NCBI GenBank assembly: GCA_046350755.1
Contig: JAXLZV010000001.1
Coordinates: forward strand, 270,855 to 334,854
DNA: 64,000 bases
Source: Candidatus Saccharimonadota bacterium
GTDB taxonomy: Bacteria; Patescibacteriota; Saccharimonadia; CAILAD01; GCA-016700035
Reading direction: 5' to 3'
Positions 1 to 34,367 of the stretch are shown here, piece by piece. Numbering within the stretch: position 1 is the stretch's first letter; every line of letters begins with the position of its first letter. A program made the position numbers and the translations under genes. A model generated the notes under the pieces. It ran no database searches. It had not been told where the DNA came from and was given only the letters and a program-made list of their open reading frames with translations.

Positions 1-495
1 ACCAGCATAAGACACTGATATTGGATCCGAATCACCTGGCTCGTTTGACCATCGATGGTGTCAGCACCAGCCCGGTTAATCGTCACAGCATTGGCGCTGG
101 AGTCAGTTTTTTTAATGTAATAGCGTTGACCGCCTTTACCAGAAGCCGCGGGCAAGGTATAGGTAATCGTACCGCCAGCACAGTTGGCGAGAGCGATAAC
201 ATTCGCAGTTGTGAGGGTATACGAACCAGTCGTATCGACTCGCGTCGCCTTGGCCACAGCCTCCAGCACACCGCTCGTCGGCAGCGTGACATTCGTCGTA
301 CCGGTCGAGGTAATGGTGATCGCTGAAGTGCCGGATGTCGTCAGATTACCAGCCAGGGACAAGGTGGACGTGCCACCAGTGATCGTCACGCTTCCCGCTG
401 TCAGTGTCAGGGTGCGCTTAGTGGTGCCGCCGCCCAGCTGCCAGCCATCGGCGTTATTAAGATAATCCTGACCTGCTGCATTTTGTGTAGCCATT
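1..495 (-). CDS. Partial CDS (N-terminal ~165 aa; runs off the left edge): beta-helix/tail-fibre-like repeat protein
   Basis: I translated the reverse complement by hand. ATG is at 495-493, preceded by GGGTGA, and the frame stays open to position 1. Sequence is MATQNAAGQDYLNNADGWQLGGGTTKRTLTLTAGSVTITGG...; the Gly/Thr-rich xLTxxG repeats are typical of phage tail fibres or surface adhesins. It is third in an operon with 1691..2929 and 507..1691. Not in the ORF track because it has no in-window stop. Confidence 0.45.
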
Positions 496-506
496 ATTCA
501 CCCATC

Positions 507-1691
507 CTAACTAATCGCAATGCTGCTAATATTACTTATAGATGATACACCATGTAATGCTGGCTCGGTAATCTCAACTTGCAAATAATAGGCAAATACT
601 AAGGTAAAGCTGACGTTGGTTGAAATCACCGTCTGACCAGCCTGGATATTATTCACCTTACTCTCTGTCCAGGGGCTGCCGTCCTGCGGATCGGTGTAAC
701 TAACGATAGGTGCATCACGGGGATACGAGGTGGAGTTGAACATATAGTTTGCATTTGGCGTGATTGAGGCAGACTGCAAGACCGTACCGCTATCCTGCGT
801 CTGAAGCTGAAATTTTATCGTCGCCCCACTGCCACCGTTGCCATAGAGGCCAGCCAATACCTCAACCACATTGATCTTATTGGCTGTACCAGTTGCTAAA
901 TTGCCAAACGCGTACCAGTCTGTCTGGCCGACTGTACTCGAGGATACATAGTCACCCGTGACCGGGCCATTTTCATCGACGCAGTCCCAATTCGCTGTCG
1001 GCCCGCCGGTTCGTGACCAAGCCACCGATTGGCCGTTAGCAGTTGGCTGCAGGAGCTTGATCTGTCCCGGTCCTGGAAAATGATTTTGATAGTTGCCAGA
1101 GTCATCGTTGATTGCGATGTCATCAAAGTAGGCCACATGACCATTATCAGAACAGTTCGAACCGATTCCCAGTACATTCAGGCCGTTGGCGATCGTGGAA
1201 CGATACGAACCTTGAAGTCGTCCGTCAATTCTCAAATCACCAACACAATTCACCCCATCGGTCATGTCGGCCGAAAACTCAACCATATACCAACGATTTG
1301 CGACAAGAGCCGTCGATGAAGTCACTGACGTGCCCGAGCCGCCCGCGACACCAACGTTGATCGTTAGTGCAGCCTGCAAGGTTACGGCGATGTAATTTGA
1401 TCCGGAAGTCGTACCGAGCGTACAAATATTCGTTCCATAACCGGTCGGGGCTGTATTGGTCTTGAGATAAAAGCGTACAAAGTATTTGCCTCGGGTTGGG
1501 CTCGCTAAAAAACGCCGAGAGGCTGTCGGCCCGCCAAAAATAAAAGTTTGAAAATACATCGCTCGCGAATCGGCCCCAGAGCGCCCTGTCGTCATGCCGA
1601 TCACGGTACTCTGAGGTGTCGCCAGCGAGTCCATTTCGTAGTTCGTCGCAGCATTATTAACTTCAAAGCCAATTGTCAGCAATCGTGCCAT
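507..1691 (-). CDS. Hypothetical secreted/structural protein with a LamG (concanavalin-A-like lectin) type domain; possible receptor-binding protein
   Basis: 394-aa ORF. The central region (..LVANRWYMVEFSADMTDGVNCVGDLRIDGRLQG..) matches the usual LamG signature (W-hydrophobic, then LYIDG). ATG at 1691-1689 overlaps the TAA of the upstream gene by 1 nt (TAATG), indicating translational coupling. Confidence 0.5.
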   Translation of the reverse strand: MARLLTIGFEVNNAATNYEMDSLATPQSTVIGMTTGRSGADSRAMYFQTFIFGGPTASRRFLASPTRGKYFVRFYLKTNTAPTGYGTNICTLGTTSGSNYIAVTLQAALTINVGVAGGSGTSVTSSTALVANRWYMVEFSADMTDGVNCVGDLRIDGRLQGSYRSTIANGLNVLGIGSNCSDNGHVAYFDDIAINDDSGNYQNHFPGPGQIKLLQPTANGQSVAWSRTGGPTANWDCVDENGPVTGDYVSSSTVGQTDWYAFGNLATGTANKINVVEVLAGLYGNGGSGATIKFQLQTQDSGTVLQSASITPNANYMFNSTSYPRDAPIVSYTDPQDGSPWTESKVNNIQAGQTVISTNVSFTLVFAYYLQVEITEPALHGVSSISNISSIAIS

Positions 1692-2929
1692 TAGACGTAG
1701 GTAATACTCCCTATAGAGCTATAAACTTCCCATTCTGTATCGGCTGTGATGCAGACCAACACCACCGAATCACGTCGATGCGTCGAAGCCAGATAACCGC
1801 CAGTCCCAGTGGTGGTAGTTGCGTTCCCAAAGTAAATGACCTCACTAGCGTTCTGGGCCAGTTTCCAGCCTCCAGCTCCCTGACCAGCAATCGCTACCGT
1901 ATCACCAACCGCTGCCGTGGTCGGTAAGGTCACCGTCACCAGCGATGCGTTATTGGTGATGTAGCCCGTGTTAACCGCGGCCGCCTGCGAGGTACCAGTC
2001 ACCGTAGTCCAGCTAAGAGATGTGGCAGGTGCCCAGGTCGTTACGCCGGATCCATTGGTTTGCAAAAACTCATTAGCGTTCCCGTCGGTAGTCGGTAATG
2101 TCATCGACCAAGTCCCAGCAGCTGCCGCAGCCTGTAATGTCACTGTCCCCGAGCTACTGCCATCAAGCGAGATCTTAGGAGTAGTCTCCGTTGTGCCCGC
2201 GACAATATGGAATCGACCGTTCATAGCGAACGTGTCAGCAGCTTCCCGCACAAGCGCAACATCACCATTCAGTTGAAAACCACCGAGACCAAAATCGATA
2301 TAGTCAGTGCCGCTATCACTCTCCAGCCTAAAAAGCGGGTTGGCCTGCGACGGGCTCCCCTTCAATAATAAAGCGTTATAGTCGCCCTGGGCCGTAATTT
2401 TTACCGTGGGGTCAACACTAGCCTGATACTCAAAGCCGGTCGCGCCAGCAAAACTGCCACCGTTATTATATTGCAGCTGTTTGGTCGAGCCGCCCGGCGA
2501 ACCACTACCTCCCGCGCCCCAGCTCGGCAAACCACCGGTGACTTTCAGTACATCATTCGTCGAACCAATCGGCAGGCGCGTAAATGCCCCTGAACTATTG
2601 CGGTAATAGATATCCCCTGTCGCCCCCGAGGCATCATCATACATGGCGATCGTCTTGCGAATCGTGCCGGTGGTAATCGTAAAGTAGAGCGTATCACTAT
2701 TGAACTCCAGCGCCCCAGCTTCAGCGCTCGAGAGCAGGGTGCCAGAAGTGAATTTTAGCGGAGCGGTACCGGCGGTGGCGGTGCCAGCGCGAATGGTAAT
2801 AGTTTTATGACCACCATTGGCCGCATTATCGGTACCGGTATCATAGTGTTCCTTTTGGAGAAATTGATTGAGAATATCTCCCCATACACCATCATCACCA
2901 TTGACTGTTGGCAAACGCTGTTCGGTCAT
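1691..2929 (-). CDS. Phage tail-fibre / minor-tail-like protein (first gene of a minus-strand operon)
   Basis: 412 aa. The N-terminus MTEQRLPTVNGDDGVWGDILNQFL..HKTITIRAGTATAGTAPLKFTSGTLLSSAEAGALEFNSDTLYFTIT resembles, from memory, the conserved N-terminal domain of actinophage minor tail / tail fibre proteins (D-x-WG-x-x-LN-x-x-L). Gly/Thr/Ser-rich beta-rich remainder. An AT-rich promoter region lies upstream (2930-3148). Confidence 0.5.
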   Translation of the reverse strand: MTEQRLPTVNGDDGVWGDILNQFLQKEHYDTGTDNAANGGHKTITIRAGTATAGTAPLKFTSGTLLSSAEAGALEFNSDTLYFTITTGTIRKTIAMYDDASGATGDIYYRNSSGAFTRLPIGSTNDVLKVTGGLPSWGAGGSGSPGGSTKQLQYNNGGSFAGATGFEYQASVDPTVKITAQGDYNALLLKGSPSQANPLFRLESDSGTDYIDFGLGGFQLNGDVALVREAADTFAMNGRFHIVAGTTETTPKISLDGSSSGTVTLQAAAAAGTWSMTLPTTDGNANEFLQTNGSGVTTWAPATSLSWTTVTGTSQAAAVNTGYITNNASLVTVTLPTTAAVGDTVAIAGQGAGGWKLAQNASEVIYFGNATTTTGTGGYLASTHRRDSVVLVCITADTEWEVYSSIGSITYV

Positions 2930-3148
2930 ACCCTATCCACCAGCTGGATAGATATATTCAGTTTCCTCATGCAAAAACCCAAACACCCTCCGAATAATGT
3001 GCTTATACTTGTCTATATTGTATGATTATATACAGTTCATAGCTAGAGAAAGACAAGCTGATAATAGCTCATCAAGCTATGTAGTTGGGCGGCTTTTGCA
3101 AATAGTGATCTACCTGCACGACGCCTTGCCGCCGCACAAAAGTACGAT

Positions 3149-3814
3149 ATGAATAAGGGGTACGCGATGCAACTCGATAAAGTTCTCAGGCAATTTCCAC
3201 AAGAAGTCTTTGAAAAAGGTCAGGCGATATTTCGGCTAGGTGAAGTGGCAAAACACGGCTACATCGTACTGGACGGCATCGTCAAGATATATATTTGCGA
3301 TCGGCTAGGCATCGAACGTCGTCTCTTCTCAGCGCATCGCTATGATATGGTGCCATCTGGCTGGCTCGCCGACCCCAGCCGTCCAATGCGCTATCACTAC
3401 GCGGCCTATGATCGAGTCATACTCGCCCGCATCCAGCCAGCCCAATTTCGTGCCATACTCACACAAGTGCCAGATGCCCTAATCGCCCTCCTCATCGCTC
3501 AGGACGATCGCGTCCATCATACCAAGCTTCGAATCGAGACTGTTATTCAGAGTCGAGCCGAAGATAAAGTCGCATACTTCTTCGAGTATCTTTCAGAACG
3601 AGTCGCCGACCCGCCCGATACAGATGGCTGGTCTAAAATTGTGGTCGGCCTATCTCACCAAGAGATGAGCGACGCACTCGGCTTAGCCCGCGAAACGACG
3701 GCAGCCGCGATTCAATCTCTTGAGAAGAAAGGCTACATCCGCAAAGCCGGACGACAAAAATACTTCATCCATATTGAAGGGCTCAGACACTACATTGATT
3801 CGGTCCGCTCGTAA
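3149..3814 (+). CDS. Crp/Fnr-family transcriptional regulator (cNMP-binding domain plus C-terminal HTH)
   Basis: 221 aa. N-terminal beta-roll-like region (FEKGQAIFRLGEVAKHGYIVLDGIVKI) and C-terminal HTH (LSHQEMSDALGLARETTAAAIQSLEKKGYI). Divergent from the tail-fibre-like operon. Confidence 0.7.
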   Translation: MNKGYAMQLDKVLRQFPQEVFEKGQAIFRLGEVAKHGYIVLDGIVKIYICDRLGIERRLFSAHRYDMVPSGWLADPSRPMRYHYAAYDRVILARIQPAQFRAILTQVPDALIALLIAQDDRVHHTKLRIETVIQSRAEDKVAYFFEYLSERVADPPDTDGWSKIVVGLSHQEMSDALGLARETTAAAIQSLEKKGYIRKAGRQKYFIHIEGLRHYIDSVRS

Positions 3815-3913
3815 CGATTTGGCACAAACTGCTTGCCTCCTTTGCATGCTTGCTTTTCTCGGAGAATAGGGTTATTTTGCAGTCAGCAGAAAAGTAAGTG
3901 AAAGGAAATCATA

Positions 3914-4495
3914 ATGAACGAAGTAACCGTCGTTGAGATGGAATCAGTTCGAGACACCGCTTGGTGGCTACTGATCATCCGCGGTATCATTGCGACCCTC
4001 TTCGGGATTGCGATCTTGCTCTGGCCAGGACTTACCCTCCTGACAGCAGCTGTGGTATTCGCGCTCTATATTTTGATCTCTGGTGTCATCGACATCGTGA
4101 CCTCAATCATGAGCATCCGTAAAAATAACACTTGGTGGCTAACTATGCTGCTTGGTATCGTCCAGGTAGCAGCTGGTGCTTACATCGCCCAGCGCCCAGC
4201 TATCACGCTGGCTGTGCTCATCCTCGTGATTGGTTTCGTACTGGTCGTGCGTGGATTGTTTGAATTCATTGCGGCTTTCGACTTCCATGGCTCGATGCGT
4301 GCCCTTCTGATCGTGGTGGGTATCATCACGGCGGTAGCTGGTGTATTCGTACTCCGTCACCCCCAGACCGGCGGTATCGCCTTTGCTTGGGTGCTCGGTA
4401 TCTACGGCTTGATCGCTGGCCCTGTCTCGATCGCGCTTGGTATCCAGACCAAACACTGGCAAGACGAACTGGCTAAAGGCAAGAAAAAAGCCTAA
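3914..4495 (+). CDS. HdeD-family (DUF308) acid-resistance-type membrane protein
   Basis: 193 aa, about 6 TM helices with the repeated WWLxxxxGIxxxxxGxxxL pattern typical of DUF308/HdeD. RBS GGAAA lies upstream of the ATG. Confidence 0.6.
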   Translation: MNEVTVVEMESVRDTAWWLLIIRGIIATLFGIAILLWPGLTLLTAAVVFALYILISGVIDIVTSIMSIRKNNTWWLTMLLGIVQVAAGAYIAQRPAITLAVLILVIGFVLVVRGLFEFIAAFDFHGSMRALLIVVGIITAVAGVFVLRHPQTGGIAFAWVLGIYGLIAGPVSIALGIQTKHWQDELAKGKKKA

Positions 4496-4511
4496 CCAAA
4501 CACAAATTCTC

Positions 4512-4547
4512 AAAAAAAAGACCCGGCTGGGTCTTTTTTTTGTACTC
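4512..4547. terminator. Bidirectional rho-independent terminator between converging genes
   Basis: AAAAAAAAGACCCGGCTGGGTCTTTTTTTTG: GC stem-loop flanked by an A-tract and a T-tract, so it can terminate both the + gene (3914..4495) and the - gene (4566..4829). Confidence 0.8.
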
Positions 4548-4565
4548 AGGGACCCCCTTGAAAAC

Positions 4566-4829
4566 CTACTTTCTAGAAGTCTTGGTGGCTAACCGTTTCT
4601 TTCGCCCACTCCGATGCACCCGCGTACGCCCCCAATGAATCCGGTTCCAGACTCGCTCATGGCCATAATACAGCAGAGTACTGGCCAGATTCGTAAAAAT
4701 CACAAGAGTCAGCGTGGCATCAAAGCGTCGGGTAATAAACAGAATCACCAGAAAATCCGACGTCAGAACCACGAGCCGAAAAGTGACGGCTTTAAGTAAT
4801 GATCGTTTGGATTTTTCGTGAAAGCGCAT
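4566..4829 (-). CDS. DUF2061 small membrane protein
   Basis: 87 aa; KAVTFRLVV..TLLYYGHERVWNRIHWG matches the YYxHERxW signature of DUF2061. Confidence 0.55.
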   Translation of the reverse strand: MRFHEKSKRSLLKAVTFRLVVLTSDFLVILFITRRFDATLTLVIFTNLASTLLYYGHERVWNRIHWGRTRVHRSGRKKRLATKTSRK

Positions 4830-4857
4830 GGTTTGTTTTGCTGGTCAAGTTGATTAC

Positions 4858-5067
4858 TTAAGCACCATACTTTCCGCCACCAAAACCACGCGGGCTAGAC
4901 TCCGGCTGACGCTTGGGTCGCGACTTTTTTTGACCAAGCTCAGACAAATTCTTCATAGCCGCCGAGACACCGACCACACCTGCCGCCGCCAAACCAATGT
5001 GCGCCAGAAAATCTTTCCGGCTCATCTTCTTATTGAGCAAGTCATCTATTGGGTTCTTGCGAGACAT
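4858..5067 (-). CDS. Small (55-69 aa) protein with a twin-arginine-like signal (SRKDFLAHIGLAAAGVVGVSAA), immediately downstream of tatC
   Basis: MSRKNPIDDLLNKKMSRKDFLAHIGLAAAGVVGVSAAMKNLSELG... has an S-R-K-x-F-L n-region/h-region like a Tat signal (RK variant), followed by only ~30 basic or Gly-rich residues. Confidence 0.45.
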   Translation of the reverse strand: MSRKNPIDDLLNKKMSRKDFLAHIGLAAAGVVGVSAAMKNLSELGQKKSRPKRQPESSPRGFGGGKYGA

Positions 5068-5087
5068 ATAGTTGTATTATACGCCGC

Positions 5088-6143
5088 TTATGCTGTTCCG
5101 GGCGAGTGGATATCGATAATCGGACGGGTTGCTGTTGGCAATTGATAACGCCGTTTTGGTCCCCGGCGAACAACGTGGGTGACGCGAGCCGTCGACAGAT
5201 CAATCACGTGATCTTGAGCGGTTTTCGCCTGAGGTGAAGATAACTCACTGCGTGTGAAGCCCCGCTTGGGCTGGCTGAGAGTCGCAGGCGCCAAATCTGC
5301 GACCGGCATAAATGCGCGAGAATCAAGCTGAGTAGCAACGAATGGCTGCCGAGCTGATTCGCGGGCGGGAGCCAATGGCTGACTGATAGCTGGCTTTGGT
5401 CGTGGAGCCTCGACGGTGCGGCTGGCGTGCGGTCGTCGTTGGCGCCGCAGACGTTGCAGATAGATTAACGCCACACTGCCTTCAAAAAGTATCAGCATTG
5501 GTCCCGTAATCATCAGTTGATTATAAGGATCAGGGGTTGGCGTAATCATTGCGCCAATGATAAAACTCGCTGCAATGATTGGCTTTTGAGCTTTCTTGAG
5601 GGTTCCAGGTGGTATTGGCCGAATGTGGTCAATAAAGAAAAGAATCACCGGCAACTGGAAGATGGCAGCAGTACCGAGGAGATAGGCTGACAGGAATGAA
5701 ATGTACTCATTGGTCGTAATCAGTGCACGCACATCACTACCGCCCAGATCCAAGAGGAAGTGCAAAGCGCTCGGCAAACTAATCAGGTAAGCATAGACGA
5801 TGCCGAGAGCCGCCATACCTAGTGACGCTAGCATAATCATGACTGCCGAGCGAGTCGTGATCTTGCGATGAACCGGCCGAATAAATTGCACCAGCTGGTA
5901 AACCGCAGCTGGTAAAGCAACTGCCAAGCCCAACACCAGACTAATAAACATCATGTAGTTTAAGCCGCCGGTTGGCGAAGTAAAATACAGTGTCTCGCCC
6001 AGTGGCTTGGTCAGCAAATGAGAAAACGGCTTATACCAGATGAAGCCAGCTAACATACCAACAGCAAACAAAGCGGCCGGTATGCGGAGTCGCTTGCTCA
6101 GTTCCTGAAGATGTTCTCGAAACGTTTGCTGTTCGTGTGTCAT
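5088..6143 (-). CDS. tatC: Sec-independent protein translocase TatC
   Basis: 351 aa, six TM helices, conserved TatC N-terminus (HLQELSKRL), TatC-like overall organisation, and a C-terminal hydrophilic extension. Confidence 0.85.
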   Translation of the reverse strand: MTHEQQTFREHLQELSKRLRIPAALFAVGMLAGFIWYKPFSHLLTKPLGETLYFTSPTGGLNYMMFISLVLGLAVALPAAVYQLVQFIRPVHRKITTRSAVMIMLASLGMAALGIVYAYLISLPSALHFLLDLGGSDVRALITTNEYISFLSAYLLGTAAIFQLPVILFFIDHIRPIPPGTLKKAQKPIIAASFIIGAMITPTPDPYNQLMITGPMLILFEGSVALIYLQRLRRQRRPHASRTVEAPRPKPAISQPLAPARESARQPFVATQLDSRAFMPVADLAPATLSQPKRGFTRSELSSPQAKTAQDHVIDLSTARVTHVVRRGPKRRYQLPTATRPIIDIHSPGTA

Positions 6144-6202
6144 GTTAGATATATTTACGTTGATTTTTCTTGTTGGACCGAAGCTGGTCAGGCAATTAAC
6201 AC

Positions 6203-6391
6203 TTACTTTTTGGTCGAAGATTTCTTAGCAGATTTCTTTGGCTCTTCTTCCTCACCAAAGCCCTTTTTGACTTCCTTACCAAAGGTCCCAATACTCCGAC
6301 CTAGCTCAGGCAATTTGCTCGCGCCAAAAAGCAGAAGCAAAACCAACACGATCAAGATTAATTCCGGGAGACCAATTCCTAATACTTCCAC
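6203..6391 (-). CDS. tatA: Sec-independent protein translocase TatA/E
   Basis: 62 aa: MEVLGIGLPELILIVLVLLLLFGASKLPELGRSIGTFGKEVKKGF is the TatA TM helix, FG hinge and amphipathic helix. Sits upstream of tatC. Confidence 0.85.
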   Translation of the reverse strand: MEVLGIGLPELILIVLVLLLLFGASKLPELGRSIGTFGKEVKKGFGEEEEPKKSAKKSSTKK

Positions 6392-6539
6392 GTTATACCA
6401 TCCTTTTTATATTCTCTTATTCCCAGGATACCATAACTAGAACAATGCACAAGTATTTTCTACAACAAATTACAGAAATAAGAAAACCCCCGACAGATGA
6501 CGATGTCATGACATCATCTTCCGTCAGGGGTGGAGGTAC

Positions 6540-7277
6540 TTATGGCAAAGCTGCTATCGCAGGACTCAAGCAACTGGCGAAAGCTCGGTAGCCAGCTTGA
6601 TTGGGATGCCACCGATCGACACCTGGAGTGTAACTCCAATAATTGGGGTTGAGGGCCTCAACCGCGCTGTACGCATCTCTGAGTGACGGATTGCAATCGA
6701 TGATGTCACCGACCACGCCGCCTGATGAGAGCCAGGCGTTGTACTCCAGTCGGCTGTCATATCGATGGTCGTAAGACAGGCTGGGTGGGTATAGTGCGAA
6801 GGGCGTGATGGGCAGCCAGACGACGCGTACACCCCTGCTCGCCAGTTCGGCGCTCAAGCTCGCAACAGCGTCGATCAATCCCTGAACCGGCTGGTCGACT
6901 GCCAAATCATTGATTCCACCCGACACTATGACCATACCGACGTTGTTATCACAAACGTCTAGCTGCCGCAAAAGACGGGCGCCGATGTTGTATTCCGGGT
7001 TGACTGCCGTGAATCCAGCACCGCCCTTTGCAGTGTTGTAGGCGATAGAACCAATCGGCAACTGCATGTATTGCGGCCACTGACCAACCAGTGAATCGCC
7101 AGCGTAGATGACGACCCGAGGGCCAGGGATTGAACAAGTCAGCTCTGGCGGTGTCGTTGTGAGGGTCGTGGATGATCCAGTTATCGATGGCGATGTCATA
7201 CAGGCTGTGGCGAACATCGCCAGTAGGACTGTCACCATCATGACGAACAGCCAACGATGCTTCATGAGTGAACTCAT
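6540..7277 (-). CDS. SGNH/GDSL-family hydrolase (lipase/esterase), probable lipoprotein or secreted
   Basis: GDSL block IYAGDSLVGQW, GGIND block and C-terminal DxxH-like region. N-terminal signal MKHRWLFVMMVTVLLAMFATAC is a possible lipobox. Start chosen at the ATG at 7277 (M18 of the ORF); 7265 is also possible. Confidence 0.65.
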   Translation of the reverse strand: MSSLMKHRWLFVMMVTVLLAMFATACMTSPSITGSSTTLTTTPPELTCSIPGPRVVIYAGDSLVGQWPQYMQLPIGSIAYNTAKGGAGFTAVNPEYNIGARLLRQLDVCDNNVGMVIVSGGINDLAVDQPVQGLIDAVASLSAELASRGVRVVWLPITPFALYPPSLSYDHRYDSRLEYNAWLSSGGVVGDIIDCNPSLRDAYSAVEALNPNYWSYTPGVDRWHPNQAGYRAFASCLSPAIAALP

Positions 7278-7406
7278 ATCGAAACCTTTCGGATCGGGCT
7301 GGAAGGTGCGGATTGGTCGAGTAACCAAGCATGACTACGTTACATACATTAAGCAACTATGTCAAGATGCGGGCTAGCTGCGAGAGCTTATAAATGACCT
7401 TTTGGG

Positions 7407-8237: not shown

Positions 8238-9212
8238 TTAGTCACGACGCAAACGATCCAAAGCGCGTTCGAGGGCGTGTGGCTTCTCGTGATAGGTATG
8301 CGGCACGAGCGTCTGTCGGTGACACTCGTGAGCAATCTCATGCATGACGGCATGACAGTCGTCATCGGTCTCTATGAAAGTCGGCCCCAGGATGGTACAA
8401 GCCGGCGGCTCGTCACCATCGAGGTTGACGGCCACTGGGATGACCCAACCACGCATCAACTGCATGGTGCCGGCCTTCAGCGGCTGCATATGGATGCGCT
8501 CGCTGTAGAAGATGTCGCGCGACGCGCTGGGGGCGATAGCCAGCAGCCGTCCACCTGGTTCGAGAAACTCGGCCAACTCCAGCTTGGTCAGCTCATTACT
8601 GGTGCGCACCAAGTCATCCGGAAATTTCTTGTTGCGAACCGTCGGCGTAGTCGGAAAACTCAAAGCCACGTTGGCGAACATCTGAATAGCCTCGACAGCC
8701 GGCATGAAAAACTCGTCTTCGCGGATGTAGAGCTGGGTCGTCGTGATGCCACGACTGATTACCAGGGCGGTCCGCTGCGTGAACTCAAGGGCGCTCAACC
8801 AGCGCTCGATCTCCAATCGCAAGGCACCCGCCACCAAAGCGATGTCGATGATGTTGCTGTGATTGGTGATGAGCGTAAAGTTAGTCCGGCCCCGCAGCAT
8901 CTCCCCTGCCATGAATCGCATCATGTCGCTGTGCTGGCGCCAAGCTTCTGGAATGACTCGAAAATTCTTGTGAGCCTTCGGCCCAAAGGGAGCCAGATCG
9001 CGATTCGAAACCGCCACGCTAGGAACCATCGCCGTAGTCAGCCGATGATAGGGTTTTGATGGATCGAAACCCATCGGCAACAGCGGCCCAGTCGTATGGC
9101 GACTGCCTAGCTCAGCGAGCAACGGGTAGACCGCTTGAGAGTTGAACTGCTCGAGGCGGGTCTGCAACTCCCGTCGGCGAGAGGCGTAGCTCGTCATGTC
9201 GACTCCATTCAT
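8238..9212 (-). CDS. Lysophospholipid/glycerol-phosphate acyltransferase-family protein (PlsC-like, HxxxxD motif)
   Basis: 324 aa. LITNHSNIIDIALV carries the H(x4)D acyltransferase catalytic motif; a downstream FP.G..-like block (FPTTPTVRN) is present. Confidence 0.45.
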   Translation of the reverse strand: MNGVDMTSYASRRRELQTRLEQFNSQAVYPLLAELGSRHTTGPLLPMGFDPSKPYHRLTTAMVPSVAVSNRDLAPFGPKAHKNFRVIPEAWRQHSDMMRFMAGEMLRGRTNFTLITNHSNIIDIALVAGALRLEIERWLSALEFTQRTALVISRGITTTQLYIREDEFFMPAVEAIQMFANVALSFPTTPTVRNKKFPDDLVRTSNELTKLELAEFLEPGGRLLAIAPSASRDIFYSERIHMQPLKAGTMQLMRGWVIPVAVNLDGDEPPACTILGPTFIETDDDCHAVMHEIAHECHRQTLVPHTYHEKPHALERALDRLRRD

Positions 9213-9325
9213 AGTAGGTACAAGAACGGACTATATTATCCCAGATTAGCTCCAGATTACAAAGACCCTACCACGATCACGCGCAAAGCATACAGACTCA
9301 CTTGACGCTGAGGACTATAATAGTA

Positions 9326-10141
9326 ATGCACTCATTTTTACATGGAAAAACCATAATTCAATCTCAAAGAGAGCCAAAGTCGAACCATCGACACAGATAT
9401 ATGACTACTCAATTCAGTCCTGATTATTCCCACGCAGTCGACCAGCTTGCTACTTCCCAGCTGGCGGAGCAAGATTACGCTACCCTTTTACAGCAGTCCA
9501 AAAGTATCGCTCGCAGACTAGATGTCCCTCAGTCGCTTCAGGAGACAGTCTTCCAGCTCCTCGCCCAGCTCCATCAGCACGACCAAAAAACCGCCAAAGA
9601 GTGCTTGCAGGCTCTCCCGCTGGCCCTCAAAGTTGCTCAAATCTACAGTCAATTCTACTCGCAGCCCGTGAACCTCAGCTACGTTTGGTCAGCGGCTATC
9701 CTGCACGATATCGGCAAAACTCACATACCTCAGTCGTTGATCACCAAAAGTAATCGTGGCCTTGAGTGGACCGACGCCGACCGAGAGCAGATGATGCATC
9801 ATGTTCAAGCTGGCTATACTATCGCACGAGCTCATCATCTACCTACTCCGGTCTGTCGAGCCATTGCCGAACACCATCATAAACAGCTAGGCGTCTCATA
9901 CGGCATGAATCCCCAGCTCAATGATATCGAACGCATCATCCGCGACAGTATCGCCATCGCCGACTTTACCGACGCCGACCTGAACCGTACCAATTGCCGT
10001 AATGCCACCAAGAACCGCCAGCAACGACTGGCAGAAATCATTGATGATATTATCTTTGTTTTTAATGACTATACGTATGGAAACCTATTGGCTCAGCTGA
10101 CTTTCCAGCAGCTGGCGCAGCCAGCCTACGCTTTTCGCTAG
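9326..10141 (+). CDS. HD-domain (HDIG) metal-dependent phosphohydrolase
   Basis: AAILHDIGKTHIP (HDIG) and downstream His/Asp residues (HHVQAGYTIARAHHLP). The ORF track starts at TTG 9302; I chose the first ATG (9326). 9401 is another option. Confidence 0.55.
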   Translation: MHSFLHGKTIIQSQREPKSNHRHRYMTTQFSPDYSHAVDQLATSQLAEQDYATLLQQSKSIARRLDVPQSLQETVFQLLAQLHQHDQKTAKECLQALPLALKVAQIYSQFYSQPVNLSYVWSAAILHDIGKTHIPQSLITKSNRGLEWTDADREQMMHHVQAGYTIARAHHLPTPVCRAIAEHHHKQLGVSYGMNPQLNDIERIIRDSIAIADFTDADLNRTNCRNATKNRQQRLAEIIDDIIFVFNDYTYGNLLAQLTFQQLAQPAYAFR

Positions 10142-10189
10142 ACTGATAGCCATTATCCACTCTGCAGATTTTCGGACTATACTGACAGT

Positions 10190-10882
10190 ATGGGTCCAAT
10201 CGTTCTGCTAGCCATTGTCATCTTCGGCCTGATCATCCTGGGTATTATTGTAGCTTTTAGCCCGACACTGATTCTGACGCAAGTTGCGATCTTAACGCGC
10301 TCAAAGCGGCCAATTCTTGATTCGGCCGCCCTGATAAGCGGTATTTTAGTGCCGATTGTTATTTATGGGGCTCTAGCCTATCTGTTTGTCGACCAAATCA
10401 CGACCTTCCAACTACCGTCACCACGAACTACCATTGCTAGCTTGCCTTTCATCGATGTCCTGGCTGGCGCACTGCTCCTTGTAGCCGGCCTGCGCTTACG
10501 TCGACCCCGCCAAGCTCAGCGTGCAGCGGCTGAGGCCGAACAACCCCACAAACTCATGAGCCCAAAAGCTCTCTTTGCCTTCGGCCTCATTAAGATGGCA
10601 ACCAGCCTGAGTAGTATCGCTGCGATTCTGATTGGCGTGCAGTTTATTGAAAGTTATATTACCGGCAATGTCTGGCAGGCTATGGCTCTGATTGGCTTCA
10701 TGGTGATTTCGATCTTCCCATTTTTGCTGATTGCCTCACTTCAAGCCTACTTCCCACATGTCTTCCAGCGCGTGAAATCCTCATCCGACCGCGTGGCCCA
10801 GCTCGACTGGATCAGTATCCTGAGCTGGATGCTGATTCTGGCCGGTACCGGCTTCGTCGCCTCGGGCTTACTCAATCTCTAA
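10190..10882 (+). CDS. Polytopic membrane protein of unknown function
   Basis: 230 aa, about 6 predicted TM helices; no recognisable catalytic motif. Confidence 0.4.
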   Translation: MGPIVLLAIVIFGLIILGIIVAFSPTLILTQVAILTRSKRPILDSAALISGILVPIVIYGALAYLFVDQITTFQLPSPRTTIASLPFIDVLAGALLLVAGLRLRRPRQAQRAAAEAEQPHKLMSPKALFAFGLIKMATSLSSIAAILIGVQFIESYITGNVWQAMALIGFMVISIFPFLLIASLQAYFPHVFQRVKSSSDRVAQLDWISILSWMLILAGTGFVASGLLNL

Positions 10883-11016
10883 ACCCATACAAGATGATCA
10901 AACAATTAAAAATGGCTGGGATAGTGGGATAGCGACTTCGCCTCCTCCGCTCGCAGCTGCTCGAAACAAGTTTCTGCGCGGTTACGGTTCGAATACCCTC
11001 AAGCGCTAGGCCAATG

Positions 11017-11040
11017 TTAAAACCCAGCTTTCACTGGGCT
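11017..11040 (-). terminator. Rho-independent terminator downstream of tRNA-Gln
   Basis: The minus strand reads AAAGCCCAGTGAAAGCTGGGTTTT: a GC hairpin followed by a U-tract. Confidence 0.6.
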
Positions 11041-11047
11041 TTAACAT

Positions 11048-11122
11048 TGGCTGGGATGGTAGGATTCGAACCTACGATCTCCTGTGCCAGAAACAGGCGC
11101 CTTACCACTTGGCCACATCCCA
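11048..11122 (-). tRNA. tRNA-Gln (anticodon CUG)
   Basis: Reverse complement TGGGATGTGGCCAAGTGGTAAGGCGCCTGTTTCTGGCACAGGAGATCGTAGGTTCGAATCCTACCATCCCAGCCA folds as a 75-nt cloverleaf: 7-bp acceptor stem, anticodon loop UUCUGGC (anticodon CUG), T-loop GGTTCGAATCC, encoded CCA. Confidence 0.85.
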
Positions 11123-11263
11123 ATAGTTATTCAGTTTTTTCAGAGCTCGATTTTTTTCAATTTGTACCGAGAAATTATACCTGATTTAGTGACATTTGAC
11201 CAGGTATTTATCCAAGAGATTGCCCCCGCACAACGCTGTGCGGGGGCTTGTATCATCCGCTCA

Positions 11264-11980
11264 TTAGGCGGCGAGCGTGAGATGCGGTCCCGACTCGAGC
11301 TGGTCGAGAACACCATCGACATATCTGTGCAGCGCTCGATGCCAGATGACCCCCAGGTGCTCAGCCCAACCATCGACTAGCTCGATGCCATGGCTGCGCG
11401 TCAGGCCAGCCCGAATGAGCAAGCGGTGGAGAAAGGCTGGTGCCAGTACGACGTTGTGGGCGCCGGACACCGTCGAGGCGAACCACGGCACCACCAGCTC
11501 GTCCATCACCGAGAAAAGTGAGTAGACGTTATCGGCCGTGAACGACTGATCCTCACGCAGCTCATGCAGATAGCGCGAGTGAGCAGCCATCGTACGAATC
11601 GCCGGCAACCAACTCAGAATCTGACCGAGATTTGCCAGCCGGGTGCCATGAAATGGTGCACCGAAGGCAATCACCGCCACGACCAGCCCAGAGAAATACT
11701 TGCCGTGATGCAGGGCATGCAAGGCACCCTGGCTGTGGCCGACCAAGATATAGCGCCGTTCTGGATTCGGCAGAAACACCTTAGTAGCCAGCTCGTCCGA
11801 AGCATCCTCCAGATGGCCGAGACCAAGCTTGGGAATTGCTAAGATGACAACGTCATAGCCGCGAGCCTCAAAGACTCGTGCCAGCGGCCGGTACACGCAA
11901 GCCGCTAGCTGAGGGCAGAATGTACCCATGTAGATCACAACCGTGGTGTTTTCGAGTGGAGTAGCTGCTGACTCGGACAC
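11264..11980 (-). CDS. Alpha/beta-hydrolase-fold esterase/lipase (GHSQG nucleophile elbow)
   Basis: 238 aa. VGHSQGALHA is GxSxG; the organisation resembles class-2 lipase or PGAP1-like hydrolases. Confidence 0.55.
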   Translation of the reverse strand: MSESAATPLENTTVVIYMGTFCPQLAACVYRPLARVFEARGYDVVILAIPKLGLGHLEDASDELATKVFLPNPERRYILVGHSQGALHALHHGKYFSGLVVAVIAFGAPFHGTRLANLGQILSWLPAIRTMAAHSRYLHELREDQSFTADNVYSLFSVMDELVVPWFASTVSGAHNVVLAPAFLHRLLIRAGLTRSHGIELVDGWAEHLGVIWHRALHRYVDGVLDQLESGPHLTLAA

Positions 11981-27923: not shown

Positions 27924-28547
27924 TTAATGATCGAGTCGCGTGAAGATCGCCCAATAATTGGCGTATTCTAATAATTTCGCCTCGTCGACGAGATCGGGGC
28001 CAGTGGTATGTACCGGATCATGAACTAAAAATTGCCGTGTTGCCGCTAACCAGCCAGCAATAACCACCTGGTGATTCTCGCTATTTTTCGAAAACCCACT
28101 GCGCACACTCAGCAGCACCGGCGATTGACCCTGTAAAGACGTGCGGAGGGCGAGAAGCAGCTTCTCAGAATTCTCGCGGATATTTTTTTCGGCATCAATC
28201 TGGCTACGTACTAAATGCATCTGCAAGTCACTATAGCCTTCATGTTCGGCAAAATACTGCGGGTCCTGAGAGGGCGCTGTCCAATTACGACGCCAGGCCA
28301 ACAAGCCATAACTCGTCAGCACCCGGACCTGTCCGGGGTGCCACCAATCATTGTGATCGTTGATCGCATGGTAGCTCTCAGCTCGCCGAAATATTTCTTC
28401 AGCCGGAATGCCGTGACTCAGAAAATATTCTAGAATCATCTCGAGACTAGCGAGACCGCAACGTTGCCGTGGCTCCATCAGGTGTACGCTTAAGAGTTCA
28501 GGATCTTCCTGCCAGGAGTGCTTGAGCTGTAAACGAATATCGCTCAT
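27924..28547 (-). CDS. C39-like (papain-fold, Peptidase_C39_2 / BtrH-N-like) cysteine peptidase domain protein
   Basis: RQRCGLASLEMILEYF resembles the Q..CG catalytic Cys context of C39-like peptidases; a candidate His lies downstream (HQVVIAGW). Start at the ATG at 28547 gives an ATGA overlap with the murF stop. Confidence 0.45.
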   Translation of the reverse strand: MSDIRLQLKHSWQEDPELLSVHLMEPRQRCGLASLEMILEYFLSHGIPAEEIFRRAESYHAINDHNDWWHPGQVRVLTSYGLLAWRRNWTAPSQDPQYFAEHEGYSDLQMHLVRSQIDAEKNIRENSEKLLLALRTSLQGQSPVLLSVRSGFSKNSENHQVVIAGWLAATRQFLVHDPVHTTGPDLVDEAKLLEYANYWAIFTRLDH

Positions 28548-29830
28548 ATACCAAATGATTTTTTCTTTTTGCGCTTCCAAGCCTTCGACTGACGAACCAG
28601 CTCTCGGCCCGGGTGGTGCCCAGGTGCCAGCAAGATTCGGCTTGTTTCCTCAGTAAAGACGCCATTTTGCGAGCCTTTGACGAGTATGTAGTCATTCGCC
28701 TGAACGTGCTTCTTGAGATAGTGTCCGGCCTCGTAAGGGGTGCGAAAAATCTTCACCTTGGGCTTGTCCATGCCAGCCTCGATCGCCGCTGGTGCCAAAT
28801 ACTGACCAGCTACCTTACCAACGGTCACTAACATGTCGAGCTGGCTCTTGGCTGCATATCTGCCAATCTCACGATGCAAATCGGCGCTAAAATCACCAAG
28901 CTCATTCATGCTTCCCAGCACCGCTACCCGACTACGTGCCGGCAACTGCTGCAGCGTGTCGAGCGCGGCTTTGACTGCGGCTGGACTTGAGTTATAGCTA
29001 TCGTCGAGTAGCACTGCGTCGTTGACAGCTGGCAGGCGGCGCATCCGACCGACCGGTGACTCAATCGCCTGCAACCCGCGCGTTATCACCTTGTCGGACA
29101 ATCCGAGCTCACGACCAACGGTAGCGGCAGCCAGGACCGCACTCAAACCATGCTGTGCTATCAGGCGTGTCTTAATCGGTAGTTTCTTCCGATCGAGCAC
29201 TAGGTCGAAGGTCAGGTAGCCGGCTGGCGTCCGCGTCACACGTTCGGCACGGACAAAACCATGCTGCAAACCAAAACCGTGTGTCTGCTTTTTGCGCTCC
29301 ATCACGCTCCGGACCAGCTCAAAATCGGCATTATACAGAACGGTGTCAGCCAACGATGCCAAAGCCACAGCATCATCGCGCAATTGCTCGACCGATGCAA
29401 AGCGCTCCATATGGGCTGGGCTGACACCAGTCAAAACGCACAGTGTCGGCTTGAGTAGCTCAACCCAAGGCGTCATCATCGCCCGTTCGTCTTCAGCTAT
29501 TTCGATCACTAAGACATCATACGGATAGTCAGCCAGACTGAGCTTAATATCGGCAAAGATCTTGCGCCACGCCGCTGGACTGGTGTTCCGATCTGGTGAC
29601 TTGAGACCGAATATCGCCAGCGGCACACCAGTCTCGGTGTTGTAACTATCCTCAGAATAGCCGACTTTCTTGCCGGCCGCTTCCAATAGTGTACCAATCG
29701 CCACCTTAGTACTGGTCTTTCCTACCGTGCCGGTCACCGTGATAATCATCAAATCACGCGATGCCAGTAACTGACGGACGTATTTCCTTAAGCGCGCCAC
29801 GACGACTCGGCTGGCGAGGCGCTTAATCAT
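28544..29830 (-). CDS. murF: UDP-N-acetylmuramoyl-tripeptide--D-alanyl-D-alanine ligase (Mur ligase family, MurF-like)
   Basis: Mur-ligase ATP-binding P-loop TGTVGKTST, central and C-terminal Mur ligase domains; directly downstream of ddl. Confidence 0.75.
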   Translation of the reverse strand: MIKRLASRVVVARLRKYVRQLLASRDLMIITVTGTVGKTSTKVAIGTLLEAAGKKVGYSEDSYNTETGVPLAIFGLKSPDRNTSPAAWRKIFADIKLSLADYPYDVLVIEIAEDERAMMTPWVELLKPTLCVLTGVSPAHMERFASVEQLRDDAVALASLADTVLYNADFELVRSVMERKKQTHGFGLQHGFVRAERVTRTPAGYLTFDLVLDRKKLPIKTRLIAQHGLSAVLAAATVGRELGLSDKVITRGLQAIESPVGRMRRLPAVNDAVLLDDSYNSSPAAVKAALDTLQQLPARSRVAVLGSMNELGDFSADLHREIGRYAAKSQLDMLVTVGKVAGQYLAPAAIEAGMDKPKVKIFRTPYEAGHYLKKHVQANDYILVKGSQNGVFTEETSRILLAPGHHPGRELVRQSKAWKRKKKKSFGI

Positions 29831-31585: not shown

Positions 31586-32740
31586 CTATCTATTACGAAC
31601 TTTCCATCGAAATAGCCATACCATAATTAAGAAAGAGCCCATAGCAAGTAATCCTCTTAGAAAGATAAAACCGCCACTACTCCCAACCCGGGGCAATTGC
31701 CCAGAAGCCGGAATAACCGATGGGCCTGCTGTGGGGTTGCCGGAAGAAACAGGTGGCGAAACGATTCCGCTCAGTCGACCAATTGCATTCCCATCACCTT
31801 CGACAAACCAAATATTATCATCTAGTCCAGCTACAATACCATTCGGCAAACTAGCATTTGTAGGGATCGAGTACTCAGTAATCACGCCTGATGTCGTTAT
31901 GCGTGCGACGTTATTACCATTTGACTGTGTAAACCATAAGTTATCATCAGGACCTAACGCGATATAGAAAGATGCGCTATTCGCGGTCGGGATGGGGAAC
32001 TCAGTCACTACTCCGCTCGTGGTAATCCGACCAATACTGTTACTCGAAGTTTCGGTAAACCACAAGTTGCCATCAGAGCCAGCTGTAATACCTGCAGGGT
32101 TCGCACCAGGAGTAGAGATCGGAAACTCTGTGACAACACCGCTAGTTGTGATGCGACCAATGTTATTGCCAAGATATTCCGAAAACCATAAATTCCCATC
32201 AGGACCTGAGGTAATAACGGATGGTATCCCGCCTGAAGTAGGAATAGGATATTCGGTTACAACTCCGGCCGTGGTAATGCGACCGATGTTTCCAGCCTGC
32301 TCGGTAAACCACAGATTCCCGTCAGGGCCGACTACCAACCCAACTGGAGTGCTATTTGGAGTTAAGACAGGAAACTCTGTGACAACACCGCTAGTTGTGA
32401 TGCGACCAATGTTATTGCCATTCCCTTCCGTAAACCACAAATTACCATCGGGGCCAGTCACTATAGTTATTGGATAGCTGCTATTAGTGGGTAGCGAGAA
32501 TTCAGTCATCAACCCTGAAGATGTGACACGCCCTATCTGATTGCCATTACTTTCCGTAAACCACAAATTACCATCGGGGCCAGTCGTTATAATACCTAGC
32601 CCACAAGATGGTGTGGGAACAGAAAACTCCGAGAAGGTCGGTGCAGCTAGTGTGTGAACTGGTGAAATCACCGTAATAATGGCAATCACGAAACAAATTG
32701 AGATGACTTTAGTCGTACTCAGAGAAAAGTGAGAAAGCAT
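31586..32740 (-). CDS. Secreted Vgb (virginiamycin B lyase)-like beta-propeller repeat protein with a C-terminal sorting-signal-like tail
   Basis: About 7 repeats of GPDGNLWFTE..NNIGRITTSGVVTEFP, matching the Vgb blade motif WFTE..NKIGRIT..G.ITEY.LP. N-terminal signal peptide; C-terminus LPRVG plus hydrophobic stretch plus RWKVRNR. Confidence 0.65.
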   Translation of the reverse strand: MLSHFSLSTTKVISICFVIAIITVISPVHTLAAPTFSEFSVPTPSCGLGIITTGPDGNLWFTESNGNQIGRVTSSGLMTEFSLPTNSSYPITIVTGPDGNLWFTEGNGNNIGRITTSGVVTEFPVLTPNSTPVGLVVGPDGNLWFTEQAGNIGRITTAGVVTEYPIPTSGGIPSVITSGPDGNLWFSEYLGNNIGRITTSGVVTEFPISTPGANPAGITAGSDGNLWFTETSSNSIGRITTSGVVTEFPIPTANSASFYIALGPDDNLWFTQSNGNNVARITTSGVITEYSIPTNASLPNGIVAGLDDNIWFVEGDGNAIGRLSGIVSPPVSSGNPTAGPSVIPASGQLPRVGSSGGFIFLRGLLAMGSFLIMVWLFRWKVRNR

Positions 32741-32819: not shown

Positions 32820-34367
32820 CTATCGAACACCCGGCGTTGGGAAAGTTTCCGTACGCCTTGTAGCCTGTCGTGAGGTGCGATTGCGGATGATGCCGGCCGC
32901 TGGCACGACGGTAAATGCGAGTGCGGCCGCCAAGAACAGCCAGAGGTTCTCTCCGGTATTCGCGAGGCCGGTGCCCGTCGAACTAGCGGTGGTCGCCAGC
33001 CCAACTGGATCGACGATGATGCCGTTCTCCGCACCATCATCATCCAGGGATCCGCCATCAGTGATGGAGTACGTGAGCTTAAGGGCATGATGGCCGTTCA
33101 GAGTCGTCTCGGTGATAACAGCGCCAGGAATGTCTGAGAATGTCTGAACACTCGAGTGATACTTCCGGGCTGTCACTTGGTTCGGGAGCAGATCAGTCTC
33201 AAAGGTGAGATTGACCACCTGCGTCGAGCCCGTGGGCGCAGTCATGGTGAAGTTCACCAGGCCAAGTGGATACATCTGACCAGTATCTGTCTTGGGTAGC
33301 GAGCTAGCTGCCGTGGCACTCAGAGCTGTAATACTCGTACCATCCCCTGTCTGCAGCTGGATGTCTGGCGAGCCACCTGGCTGATTCACCGTCTTGGTGG
33401 TGATGGGAAGTTCGAGGCGGCCGATGTTGTTAGTTCCCGCTTCAGCGAACCAGATATTGTCTTGGCCGGCGGCAACAACAAAGGTCGAGCTACCGGGGCT
33501 TGGTATCGAGTATTCGGTAATGACTCCAGCTGCGTTAATACGACCTACATTATTGCCAATAATTTCCGCGAACCACATATTACCATCAATTCCGGTAGTT
33601 ATAAATCCTGGAGCAGAGCTCGATGTAGGCACAGGATACTCAGTGATTGTGCCGGCTGGTGTTATACGTCCAATATTATTGCCAGTATTCTCTGTGAACC
33701 ATAGATTGCCGTCAGAGCCACTCGTTATACCAGCTGGGAAACTAGTGAGTGTTGGCGTTGGGAATTCTGTAATACTGCCTGCAGGAGTAATGCGACCAAT
33801 ATTGCTTCCTTCCGCTTCTGTGAACCATAGATTGCCGTCAGAGCCAGCGATAATCCCGAATGGACTGCTCAACTGTGTTGGTATCGGGAATTCGGTGATT
33901 ACGCCAGAAGTTGTAATCCGACCAATATTGTTTCCCGCTGTTTCTGTGAACCAGAGGTTTCCATCGGGTCCTATGGTGATACCAAGTGGCTCACTGTTAG
34001 GGGTTAATATCGAGAATTCTGTAATATCACCACTTGGGGTGATGCGACCAACATTATTGCCTCCCGCCTCTGTGAACCAGAGGTTTCCATCGGGTCCTAT
34101 GGTGATAAATCTCGATAATGAGCCTGGGGTCGGTATTGCATACTCTGTAATATCACCACTTGGGGTGATGCGACCAACATTGTTGCCTCCCGCCTCTGTG
34201 AACCACGTATTACCGTCGGGTCCAGCTACAATACCTGTTGGCATTGCGTTCGGCGTAGATATCGGATACTCCGTAATATCATTCGGCGCAGCTAGCGCCT
34301 TACATGGGACTACTACTGCTAGTGCAGCTACGGTAAGTCCAGTTACTATTAGTCGCCAAGTACGCAC
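32820..34367 (-). CDS. Secreted Vgb-like beta-propeller repeat protein (8+ blades) with an extra C-terminal domain and a LAxTG-type sortase signal
   Basis: Same blade motif, repeated. C-terminal LANTG, then a hydrophobic segment, then a basic tail (cell-wall sorting signal of the class-E LAxTG type). Confidence 0.65.
   Translation of the reverse strand: MRTWRLIVTGLTVAALAVVVPCKALAAPNDITEYPISTPNAMPTGIVAGPDGNTWFTEAGGNNVGRITPSGDITEYAIPTPGSLSRFITIGPDGNLWFTEAGGNNVGRITPSGDITEFSILTPNSEPLGITIGPDGNLWFTETAGNNIGRITTSGVITEFPIPTQLSSPFGIIAGSDGNLWFTEAEGSNIGRITPAGSITEFPTPTLTSFPAGITSGSDGNLWFTENTGNNIGRITPAGTITEYPVPTSSSAPGFITTGIDGNMWFAEIIGNNVGRINAAGVITEYSIPSPGSSTFVVAAGQDNIWFAEAGTNNIGRLELPITTKTVNQPGGSPDIQLQTGDGTSITALSATAASSLPKTDTGQMYPLGLVNFTMTAPTGSTQVVNLTFETDLLPNQVTARKYHSSVQTFSDIPGAVITETTLNGHHALKLTYSITDGGSLDDDGAENGIIVDPVGLATTASSTGTGLANTGENLWLFLAAALAFTVVPAAGIIRNRTSRQATRRTETFPTPGVR

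Follow-up and report, generated by a model that had tools for sequence, protein, structure and literature searches.

Genes A, B and C lie at the left end of a 64,000-nucleotide stretch of DNA from a Candidatus Saccharimonadota bacterium (contig JAXLZV010000001.1, positions 270,855 to 334,854; the whole stretch is called the window below). They open a chromosomal cluster of 11 genes and about 10 kb that occurs in dozens of species of Saccharibacteria (class Saccharimonadia), and this cluster is not a prophage or a tailocin. Within the cluster, A, B and C are the variable part that encodes fibres. By the fold of its predicted model, A resembles phage tail fibres and receptor-binding proteins. 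We infer, with a probability of about 0.55, that the three proteins are co-opted phage-type receptor-binding fibres displayed on the cell surface. The cellular domestication of phage fibre modules is known in itself; what is new here is a putative adaptor domain specific to this lineage, together with the puzzle of how such fibres would be exported. Full-text literature searches gave no account of this fibre cluster.

Layout and conservation of the cluster

A, B and C were all found on the minus strand and tightly coupled, which confirmed the co-oriented operon that had been read from the sequence. The ATG of B and the TAA of A share one base in a TAATG at 1691, and a gap of 12 nt (495-506) separates B from C. 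C is open at the window edge with 164 codons present. In same-strain contigs its full length is 175 aa, so just 11 codons are lacking in the window. The Gly/Thr-rich character of the proteins was borne out by composition, with Gly and Thr contents of 13.1 and 14.8% for A, 10.9 and 10.7% for B, and 12.0 and 19.4% for C. A had 1,096 relatives in the database. Orthologues of B and C that were 95-99% identical were present in other assemblies; C was 99% identical to a full-length 175-aa orthologue. These relatives and orthologues indicate that A, B and C are real genes rather than chance open reading frames (ORFs). A word-based search returned 15 relatives of B, and the exact B protein was present on many public contigs. 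The features of this end of the window, with the evidence for each in brackets, are as follows.

1691..2929, minus strand: gene A, 412 aa, modular and fibre-like (ORF, relatives, AlphaFold2 (AF2) model, Foldseek)
2492..2929, minus strand: A residues 1-146, conserved N-terminal domain, putative adaptor (alignment, HMMER)
2015..2491, minus strand: A residues ~147-305, exchangeable central shaft cassette (DNA comparison with the relative L001)
1694..2014, minus strand: A residues ~306-412, C-terminal beta-rich knob (AF2 model, phage match)
507..1691, minus strand: gene B, 394 aa, two jelly-rolls (ConA/LamG-like and carbohydrate-binding-module-like), a rare accessory member (AF2, Foldseek, PHROG)
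1..494, minus strand (running from 494 past position 1): gene C, Thr/Gly-rich short shaft with a C-terminal knob (translation, phage matches)
2930..3148, no strand: AT-rich spacer of 219 bp separating A from the divergently oriented Crp/Fnr gene, presumably containing the promoter of the operon (GC content)
3149..3814, plus strand: Crp/Fnr-family regulator, a neighbour specific to the lineage (Pfam HTH_Crp_2, E 2.6e-10; cNMP_binding, E 1.5e-8)
4858..5067, minus strand: s70, small membrane protein of 69 aa in a Tat-associated family (NCBIfam NF038009)

The genes beyond the left edge were read from two same-strain contigs in which A and B are identical to the window (L172 and L174), and from the relative L001 (~96% DNA identity). 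Beyond position 1 they are the following.

D: 445 aa, Gly-rich repeats of ~55 aa
E: 241 aa, PHROG 1574, weak match to a glycosyltransferase family
F: 181 aa, S-adenosylmethionine (SAM) methyltransferase
G: 290 aa, signal peptide, C-terminal transmembrane (TM) segment, weak DUF916/WxLIP match
H: opposite strand, 166-178 aa, signal peptide
I: ~350 aa, signal peptide
J: 332 aa, signal peptide, TM segment, weak WxLIP match
K: ~315-346 aa, TM segment, PKD domain

K was followed by Dus and then by a class-II aminoacyl-tRNA synthetase. The N-termini of G, I, J and K were hydrophobic, with an additional TM segment at the C-terminus of G and of J. G and J contain Ig-like domains, and H and I are small secreted beta-rich proteins. 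Weak matches to WxLIP_PGBD (DUF916) were obtained for 23 of the 53 members of the G/J family (best E 1.8e-5; scores shown below the cutoff). Neither a signal peptide nor a TM segment was predicted in A to F, and the maximum hydrophobicity in the first 55 aa of A was 0.14.

Conservation was scanned with one genome per species. A complete A N-terminal domain was present in at least 42 Saccharibacteria/Saccharimonadia assemblies. Its residues 1-138 were 53-81% identical across metagenome-assembled genomes of Saccharibacteria, again from at least 42 species; other phyla and archaea showed only the sub-motif of residues 44-98. Eleven reference proteins were then placed on 46 loci, with these counts.

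A: 46 of 46 loci
s70 (67-70 aa): 38 of 46, directly upstream of A in ~33
I: 33 of 46
J: 33 of 46
G: 32 of 46
H: 31 of 46
K: 29 of 46
C-type knob: 21 of 46
D-like protein: ~20 of 46
E: 17 of 46
F: 17 of 46
true B: 3 of 46

A simple form, s70-A-G-H-I-J-K, was seen at ten loci. The flanks vary by lineage (PolA, FtsH, TatAC, Dus). On this map, the constant company of A consists of exported or membrane-anchored envelope proteins and not of phage-particle proteins. At four loci (L106, L113, L120 and L122), two or three A-type genes with the conserved N-terminal domain stand together, which suggests arrays of alternative fibres.

The Crp/Fnr regulator had been described as divergent from the operon across an AT-rich spacer. 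This layout stands by the Pfam matches of the regulator and by a GC content of 41.6% in the spacer (2930..3148) versus 52.8% in the whole window. As a conserved partner of the operon the regulator did not hold up: it lies beside A in the close relatives of the window only (L001-L004, L172-L175) and was missing from the gene tables of L005, L011 and L012. In the close relatives, DUF2061, DUF308 and Crp sit between s70 and A. A consensus scan of positions 1-5200 found promoter-like and terminator-like sites to be no commoner than in shuffled sequence.

The sequence-only reading had proposed, as one of two possibilities, that A, B and C form the receptor-binding module of a prophage or tailocin, and that the remaining structural genes may lie upstream of position 1. 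Neither proposal survived. The genes past the left edge lie downstream of the operon and are not phage structural genes. Pfam and PHROG searches of all 9 genes of the left flank (~10 kb), along with the precomputed Pfam annotation of the same-strain contigs, found no capsid, portal, terminase, tape-measure, tube, sheath, baseplate, integrase or lysis gene, and no phage structural gene was annotated in the 61 kb to the right. The rest of the window was annotated as housekeeping (tRNA synthetases, SMC, RNase III, NusB, Mur ligase, Ddl, FtsA, Obg and others). No integrase was present among the annotated neighbours; attachment sites were not searched for. Moreover, the GC content and third-position GC content (GC3) of A, B and C fell inside the range of 21 other genes, indicating that their base composition is native. 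Together with the synteny in at least 42 species, these results argue against a prophage or tailocin. Structure searches, on the other hand, still returned phage-fibre-like matches for these proteins.

Fibre-like folds and exchange of parts

The monomer AF2 model of A had a mean predicted local distance difference test score (pLDDT) of 72, with ~90 for residues 285-412. All nine of its Foldseek matches in the PDB with E<=1e-3 were phage spike, fibre or baseplate proteins. The top folds were the N-terminal region of CBA120 TSP4 (E 1e-6), the Pa223 capsid spike, the Solidus tailspike and the KP1 baseplate, followed with a weaker score by T4 gp10. Against predicted viral structures (BFVD), 133 matches with E<=1e-3 were obtained, some of them named tail fiber, Gp9/Gp10 or lambda Stf. 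By sequence, residues 223-302 of A matched gp55, which is encoded in the tail module of Pelagibacter phage HTVC026P (37% identity, E 2e-7), and residues 320-412 matched the C-terminus of a Microcoleus phage protein (45% identity, E 2e-8). Neither A nor C was assigned to a family by Pfam or NCBIfam, searching PDB sequences with A, B, E and F was unproductive, and no similarity was detectable between A and C.

The N-terminal domain of A was compared with 50,697 GenBank phage genomes and no match was found. An actinophage minor-tail or tail-fibre type of N-terminal domain, as had been proposed, is thus not borne out for A; the actinophage homology belongs to B (Streptomyces phages) and C (Gordonia phages). 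The sub-motifs of residues 44-98 and 101-143 were found again in IMG/VR viral contigs and in other phyla. PHROG scans around the viral-contig matches L013 and L014 gave nearly no annotation, and the sole structural match was one 'virion structural protein'.

For B, the AF2 model showed two jelly-roll domains with a mean pLDDT of 86 and a predicted template modelling score (pTM) of 0.86. Foldseek gave 315 PDB matches with E<=1e-3, comprising carbohydrate-binding modules (CBMs), ConA-like lectins and glucanases, and the receptor-binding (Hc) domains of clostridial neurotoxins. The LamG lectin-like domain that had been assigned to B was therefore confirmed as a jelly-roll fold by the structure model, whereas the Pfam match to Laminin_G_3 stayed below its cutoff (20.2 versus 27.6 bits, E 7e-4). 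Profile matches were obtained to PHROG 14065 (E 3.6e-24) and PHROG 2448 (E 6e-18). Over 93-95% of its length, B showed 27-31% identity to two proteins of Streptomyces phages, Galactica gp11 and Hiyaa gp13, both of which are annotated 'minor tail protein'. Weaker matches were found to virion proteins of phiCbK-like Caulobacter phages.

The C protein shows in its sequence the xLTxxG pattern that had been read as putative beta-helix repeats, and it ends in a knob (aa ~85-175). Among the matches listed, this knob was 36-49% identical to the extreme C-termini of phage tail proteins (E 3e-13 to 2e-3). Its partners were minor tail proteins of Gordonia phages (Petra gp32 and others), a 'T7 tail fiber protein' of a Thermocrinis virus, and proteins of Halorubrum tailed viruses; the matching regions lie at 5001-5216 in Gordonia phage Petra (L180) and at 4001-4279 in the Thermocrinis virus (L181). 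The likeness of the three proteins to tail fibres and receptor-binding proteins, as claimed from the sequence, is thereby upheld: by fold matches for A, by homology to Streptomyces and Caulobacter phage proteins for B, and by the Gordonia and T7-fibre knob for C.

The modular construction of A was seen at two levels. Across the family, an alignment of 45 sequences of the N-terminal domain contained 28 invariant columns. An exhaustive HMMER search returned 134 clusters (50% identity) at E<=1e-30, in which the domain always occupied residues 1 to ~142 of proteins of ~130-2,775 aa. It is thus followed by over 130 distinct architectures. The commonest form, of ~235 aa, consists of the N-terminal domain and a C-type knob, which is 53% identical to that of C. 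Some members of the A family end in SGNH/GDSL esterase domains (P0034, P0040, P0055), and some phage tailspikes also carry C-terminal SGNH/GDSL domains. A 262-aa ORF was seen beside tatA (6540-7328, minus strand), whose counterpart of 241 aa in L001 matches Pfam Lipase_GDSL families.

At closer range, the window strain was compared with L001, to which it is 96-98% identical in DNA. The N-terminal domain and C-terminal knob of A were kept at 97-99% (99% for the knob), and residues ~147-305 were merely 52-57% identical in DNA. With both ends preserved and the centre so far below its background, this indicates replacement of a central cassette. A diversity-generating retroelement was considered as the source of this variation and rejected: no second copy of any part of positions 1-3000 was present in the window, no reverse transcriptase was found among the annotated genes, and the differences between A alleles were wholesale and not adenine-specific.

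The same-strain contig L172 was 100% identical to the window over positions 1-3223, and in L174 the identity was carried through the whole cluster into Dus and the aminoacyl-tRNA synthetase. A sweep specific to the fibre genes, which might have been read from A, B and C being 100% identical in the window and in L172, was rejected because the identity runs through the whole cluster into housekeeping genes. L172 was only 78-90% identical over tatC, s70 and DUF2061 (4474-6473), as would result from a recombination tract or from a chimera in metagenome assembly.

A further link to phages was found beyond the left edge. In the uncultured podovirus ctKR88 (MW202524.1, L178; 42.6 kb, Manatee Spring), positions 8340-11978 hold a D-like repeat protein, a methyltransferase, and homologues of E and F contiguously. 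The E homologue was 45% identical (E 4e-52) and the F homologue 41% identical (E 8e-43). This contiguity indicates that D-E-F is a module shared with phages.

Proposed function and competing explanations

The proposed function can be set out as a sequence of steps. Through the N-terminal domain of A, acting as an adaptor, the fibre would be docked to a conserved partner of the cell itself. Surface glycans of another cell, most plausibly the host in the case of an episymbiont, would be bound by the lectin B, by the distal parts of A (shaft and knob) and by the C knob. E (glycosyltransferase-like) and F (methyltransferase), present at about a third of the loci, may modify the Thr/Ser-rich fibres. 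The fibres lack signals and are probably folded before they leave the cell, and their export may depend on the neighbouring Tat-associated s70.

The last of these steps was considered separately. s70 (4858-5067, minus strand) comes directly after tatC (5088-6143, minus strand) and tatA (6203-6391, minus strand). Members of its family combine an (S/T/D)R(K/R)xFL motif with a single TM helix and carry GFGxxK(F/Y)G at the C-terminus; the window protein has SRKDFL and a C-terminal GFGGGKYG. The near-constant position of s70 before A suggests that folded fibres might be exported or anchored through s70 by a link to the twin-arginine translocation (Tat) system. This is the weakest step of the proposal, and we regard it as doubtful.

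Several observations weigh against the proposed surface-displayed fibres or their export. The N-terminal and central residues 1-280 of the A model are of low confidence. None of the 55 members of the H/I family matched any Pfam family, WxL included. Phages that infect archaea and Aquificae have these fibre knob domains as well, and the link to actinophages is therefore not an exclusive one. In Southlakia epibionticum, the DUF916/WxL-fold genes, possible counterparts of G and H, were non-essential in co-culture transposon sequencing (PMC10633639 supplement), and this dispensability calls for caution in describing such genes as essential for attachment. For s70, the motif has RR in eight family members, RK in most and RS, RQ or RE in a few. 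The match to NF038009, 'Tat system-associated protein', reached E 1.8e-15 and 56.9 bits versus a cutoff of 100, and that to TIGR01409 reached 16.2 bits versus a cutoff of 16.7. Moreover, s70 is three genes from A in the window, and A to D have no signal peptide.

Two other explanations would place the fibres on a phage-like particle. A, B and C could be the tail-fibre end of an integrated phage or of a phage-tail-like bacteriocin whose other genes lie beyond the left edge. Their homology or structural similarity to phage fibre proteins would fit this, and so would the missing signal peptide, as in virion proteins. However, the left 10 kb is made up of D, E, F, five envelope proteins, Dus and the synthetase, with no gene for virion structure, lysis or integration among them, the 61 kb on the right side is annotated as housekeeping, and a cluster that is syntenic across at least 42 species with native composition, headed by an N-terminal domain conserved beyond what a decaying remnant would show, makes this explanation very improbable. 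Alternatively, the locus could supply the fibres alone for a domesticated phage-like particle resembling a gene transfer agent, with head and tail genes elsewhere in the genome. RcGTA has separate head-spike and tail-fibre loci of this kind. Signal-less fibres with a highly conserved N-terminal adaptor resemble a virion-attachment domain, and conservation throughout the class points to domestication and not to a decaying mobile element. Yet no phage-particle genes were found in the ~74 kb around the locus and the constant neighbours of A are envelope, not virion, proteins; we therefore consider such a particle highly unlikely.

The remaining explanations concern where the proteins act and what they bind. 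They could be surface proteins that do not serve host attachment. Instead, they might form a coat that protects or acts as a decoy, for example by masking phage receptors or competing for them, or they might capture glycans for nutrition. The lectin/CBM-like B, the SGNH/GDSL esterase domains of some A-family members, the hypervariable cassettes, which suit any surface molecule in an arms race, and the dispensability of DUF916/WxL-fold genes for epibiotic growth in Southlakia are all in keeping with such a role. Nothing specific speaks against it, as it shares the structural evidence for receptor-binding fibres and differs in the binding target alone; we regard it as unlikely, though with a real share of the probability. 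A cytoplasmic, non-surface role, or release at cell lysis only, would agree with the lack of signal peptides and TM segments in A to F. Lectin and fibre-knob folds have no obvious cytoplasmic role, however, and A stands constantly among exported envelope proteins and beside a Tat-associated membrane protein, so that this explanation appears quite unlikely. Co-opted surface fibres, which had been offered as the alternative of a 'co-opted surface adhesin set', were judged the better reading than a prophage or tailocin.

A more speculative extension of the surface-fibre reading would be that Saccharimonadia hold their hosts by phage-type fibres. In this proposal, a class-wide adaptor would sit on a conserved envelope complex, perhaps through s70, and the distal shafts, lectins and knobs would be recombined from the pool of tail-fibre domains in phages of the host phylum (Gordonia and Streptomyces phages). 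We hold this only tentatively. If it were true, the epibiont would be a competitor of phages for their receptors, and the fibre allele could reveal host range. The cultured Saccharimonadia parasite Mycosynbacter amalyticus has hosts of the genus Gordonia (PMC11880426). Cryo-electron tomography of a Saccharimonadia parasite of Gordonia showed unassigned appendages (PMC11880426), and nothing ties them to A, B or C.

For the question of how ultrasmall episymbionts choose and bind their hosts, the only genetic handles so far are type IV pili and a few adhesins. The locus described here adds a candidate that can be tested: a fibre family conserved across environmental Saccharibacteria, in which a putative constant anchor is combined with exchangeable receptor-binding tips of phage origin. 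It also provides an example of long-term cellular domestication of phage fibre modules without other phage-particle genes nearby, and it poses a mechanistic puzzle in the route by which signal-less fibres would exit the cell.

Other window genes and comparison with known systems

Elsewhere in the window, two tandem beta-propeller proteins of the Vgb_lyase (virginiamycin B lyase) family were noted at 31586-32740 and 32820-34367 (both minus strand; Pfam E 9e-109 and 3e-107), which are unexpected in a reduced genome. A peptidoglycan hydrolase with LysM and CHAP domains is encoded at 42267-43466 (minus strand), and a Peptidase_C39_2-like protein at 27924-28580 (minus strand) adjoins a 537-aa protein without a family; each of these is a possible cell-wall-acting or secreted factor.

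The envelope part of the cluster can be compared with WxL/DUF916 ('Csc') clusters, which are cell-surface protein clusters of Firmicutes. G and J share with them a signal peptide, Ig-like domains and an anchoring TM segment at the C-terminus, and the likeness is weak by sequence. In Southlakia epibionticum, SEML1_0626-0627 form a pair with a DUF916 fold and a WxL fold beside large RCC1/FN3 proteins, by structure-based annotation, and all of these genes were non-essential in transposon sequencing (PMC10633639 supplement). The WxL-fold protein there has 188 aa, and H is of comparable size (166-178 aa). The large neighbours in Southlakia differ in being RCC1/FN3 proteins and are not phage-fibre-like.

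For the putative export step, the nearest comparison is Tat hitch-hiking, as in [NiFe] hydrogenases, where a subunit with a Tat signal takes along a folded partner that has none. The likeness, a pure analogy, is that a Tat-like (S/T)R(R/K)xFL protein is the constant upstream neighbour of a signal-less fibre gene. The difference is that the motif is degenerate in some members and that NCBIfam treats the s70 family as a component of the Tat system, not as a substrate.

Among phages, the D-E-F module resembles that of ctKR88. There, however, the module sits after the major capsid gene and three glycosyltransferases, and the 27-kb stretch compared contained no homologue of A, B or C. The first ~370 residues (the first third) of Galactica gp11 and Hiyaa gp13 of Streptomyces phages align with B, and the last ~75-90 residues of Petra gp32, DalanDe gp24 and Commandaria gp23 of Gordonia phages align with the C knob at 36-45% identity. 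These actinophage proteins are single chains of 830-1,100 aa in virion modules, whereas the cellular locus has the parts distributed among separate small genes. Galactica gp11 is called 'minor tail' by annotation only; its gene lies between those for the capsid and the head-tail adaptor. Genes 8-10 of Galactica (a methyltransferase and two hypotheticals) were considered as counterparts of F, E and C and rejected, as no similarity was found.

Finally, A was compared with modular phage fibres and tailspikes (CBA120 TSP4, T4 gp10-type and T7-like). The differences are that the locus has no virion or baseplate genes and that the full A N-terminal domain is confined to Saccharibacteria chromosomes, with none in the 50,697 GenBank phages. 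The likeness lies in a constant N-terminal region of ~140 aa with variable extensions, in the exchange of cassettes and in the lack of a signal peptide, and these phage proteins are also the top fold matches of A.

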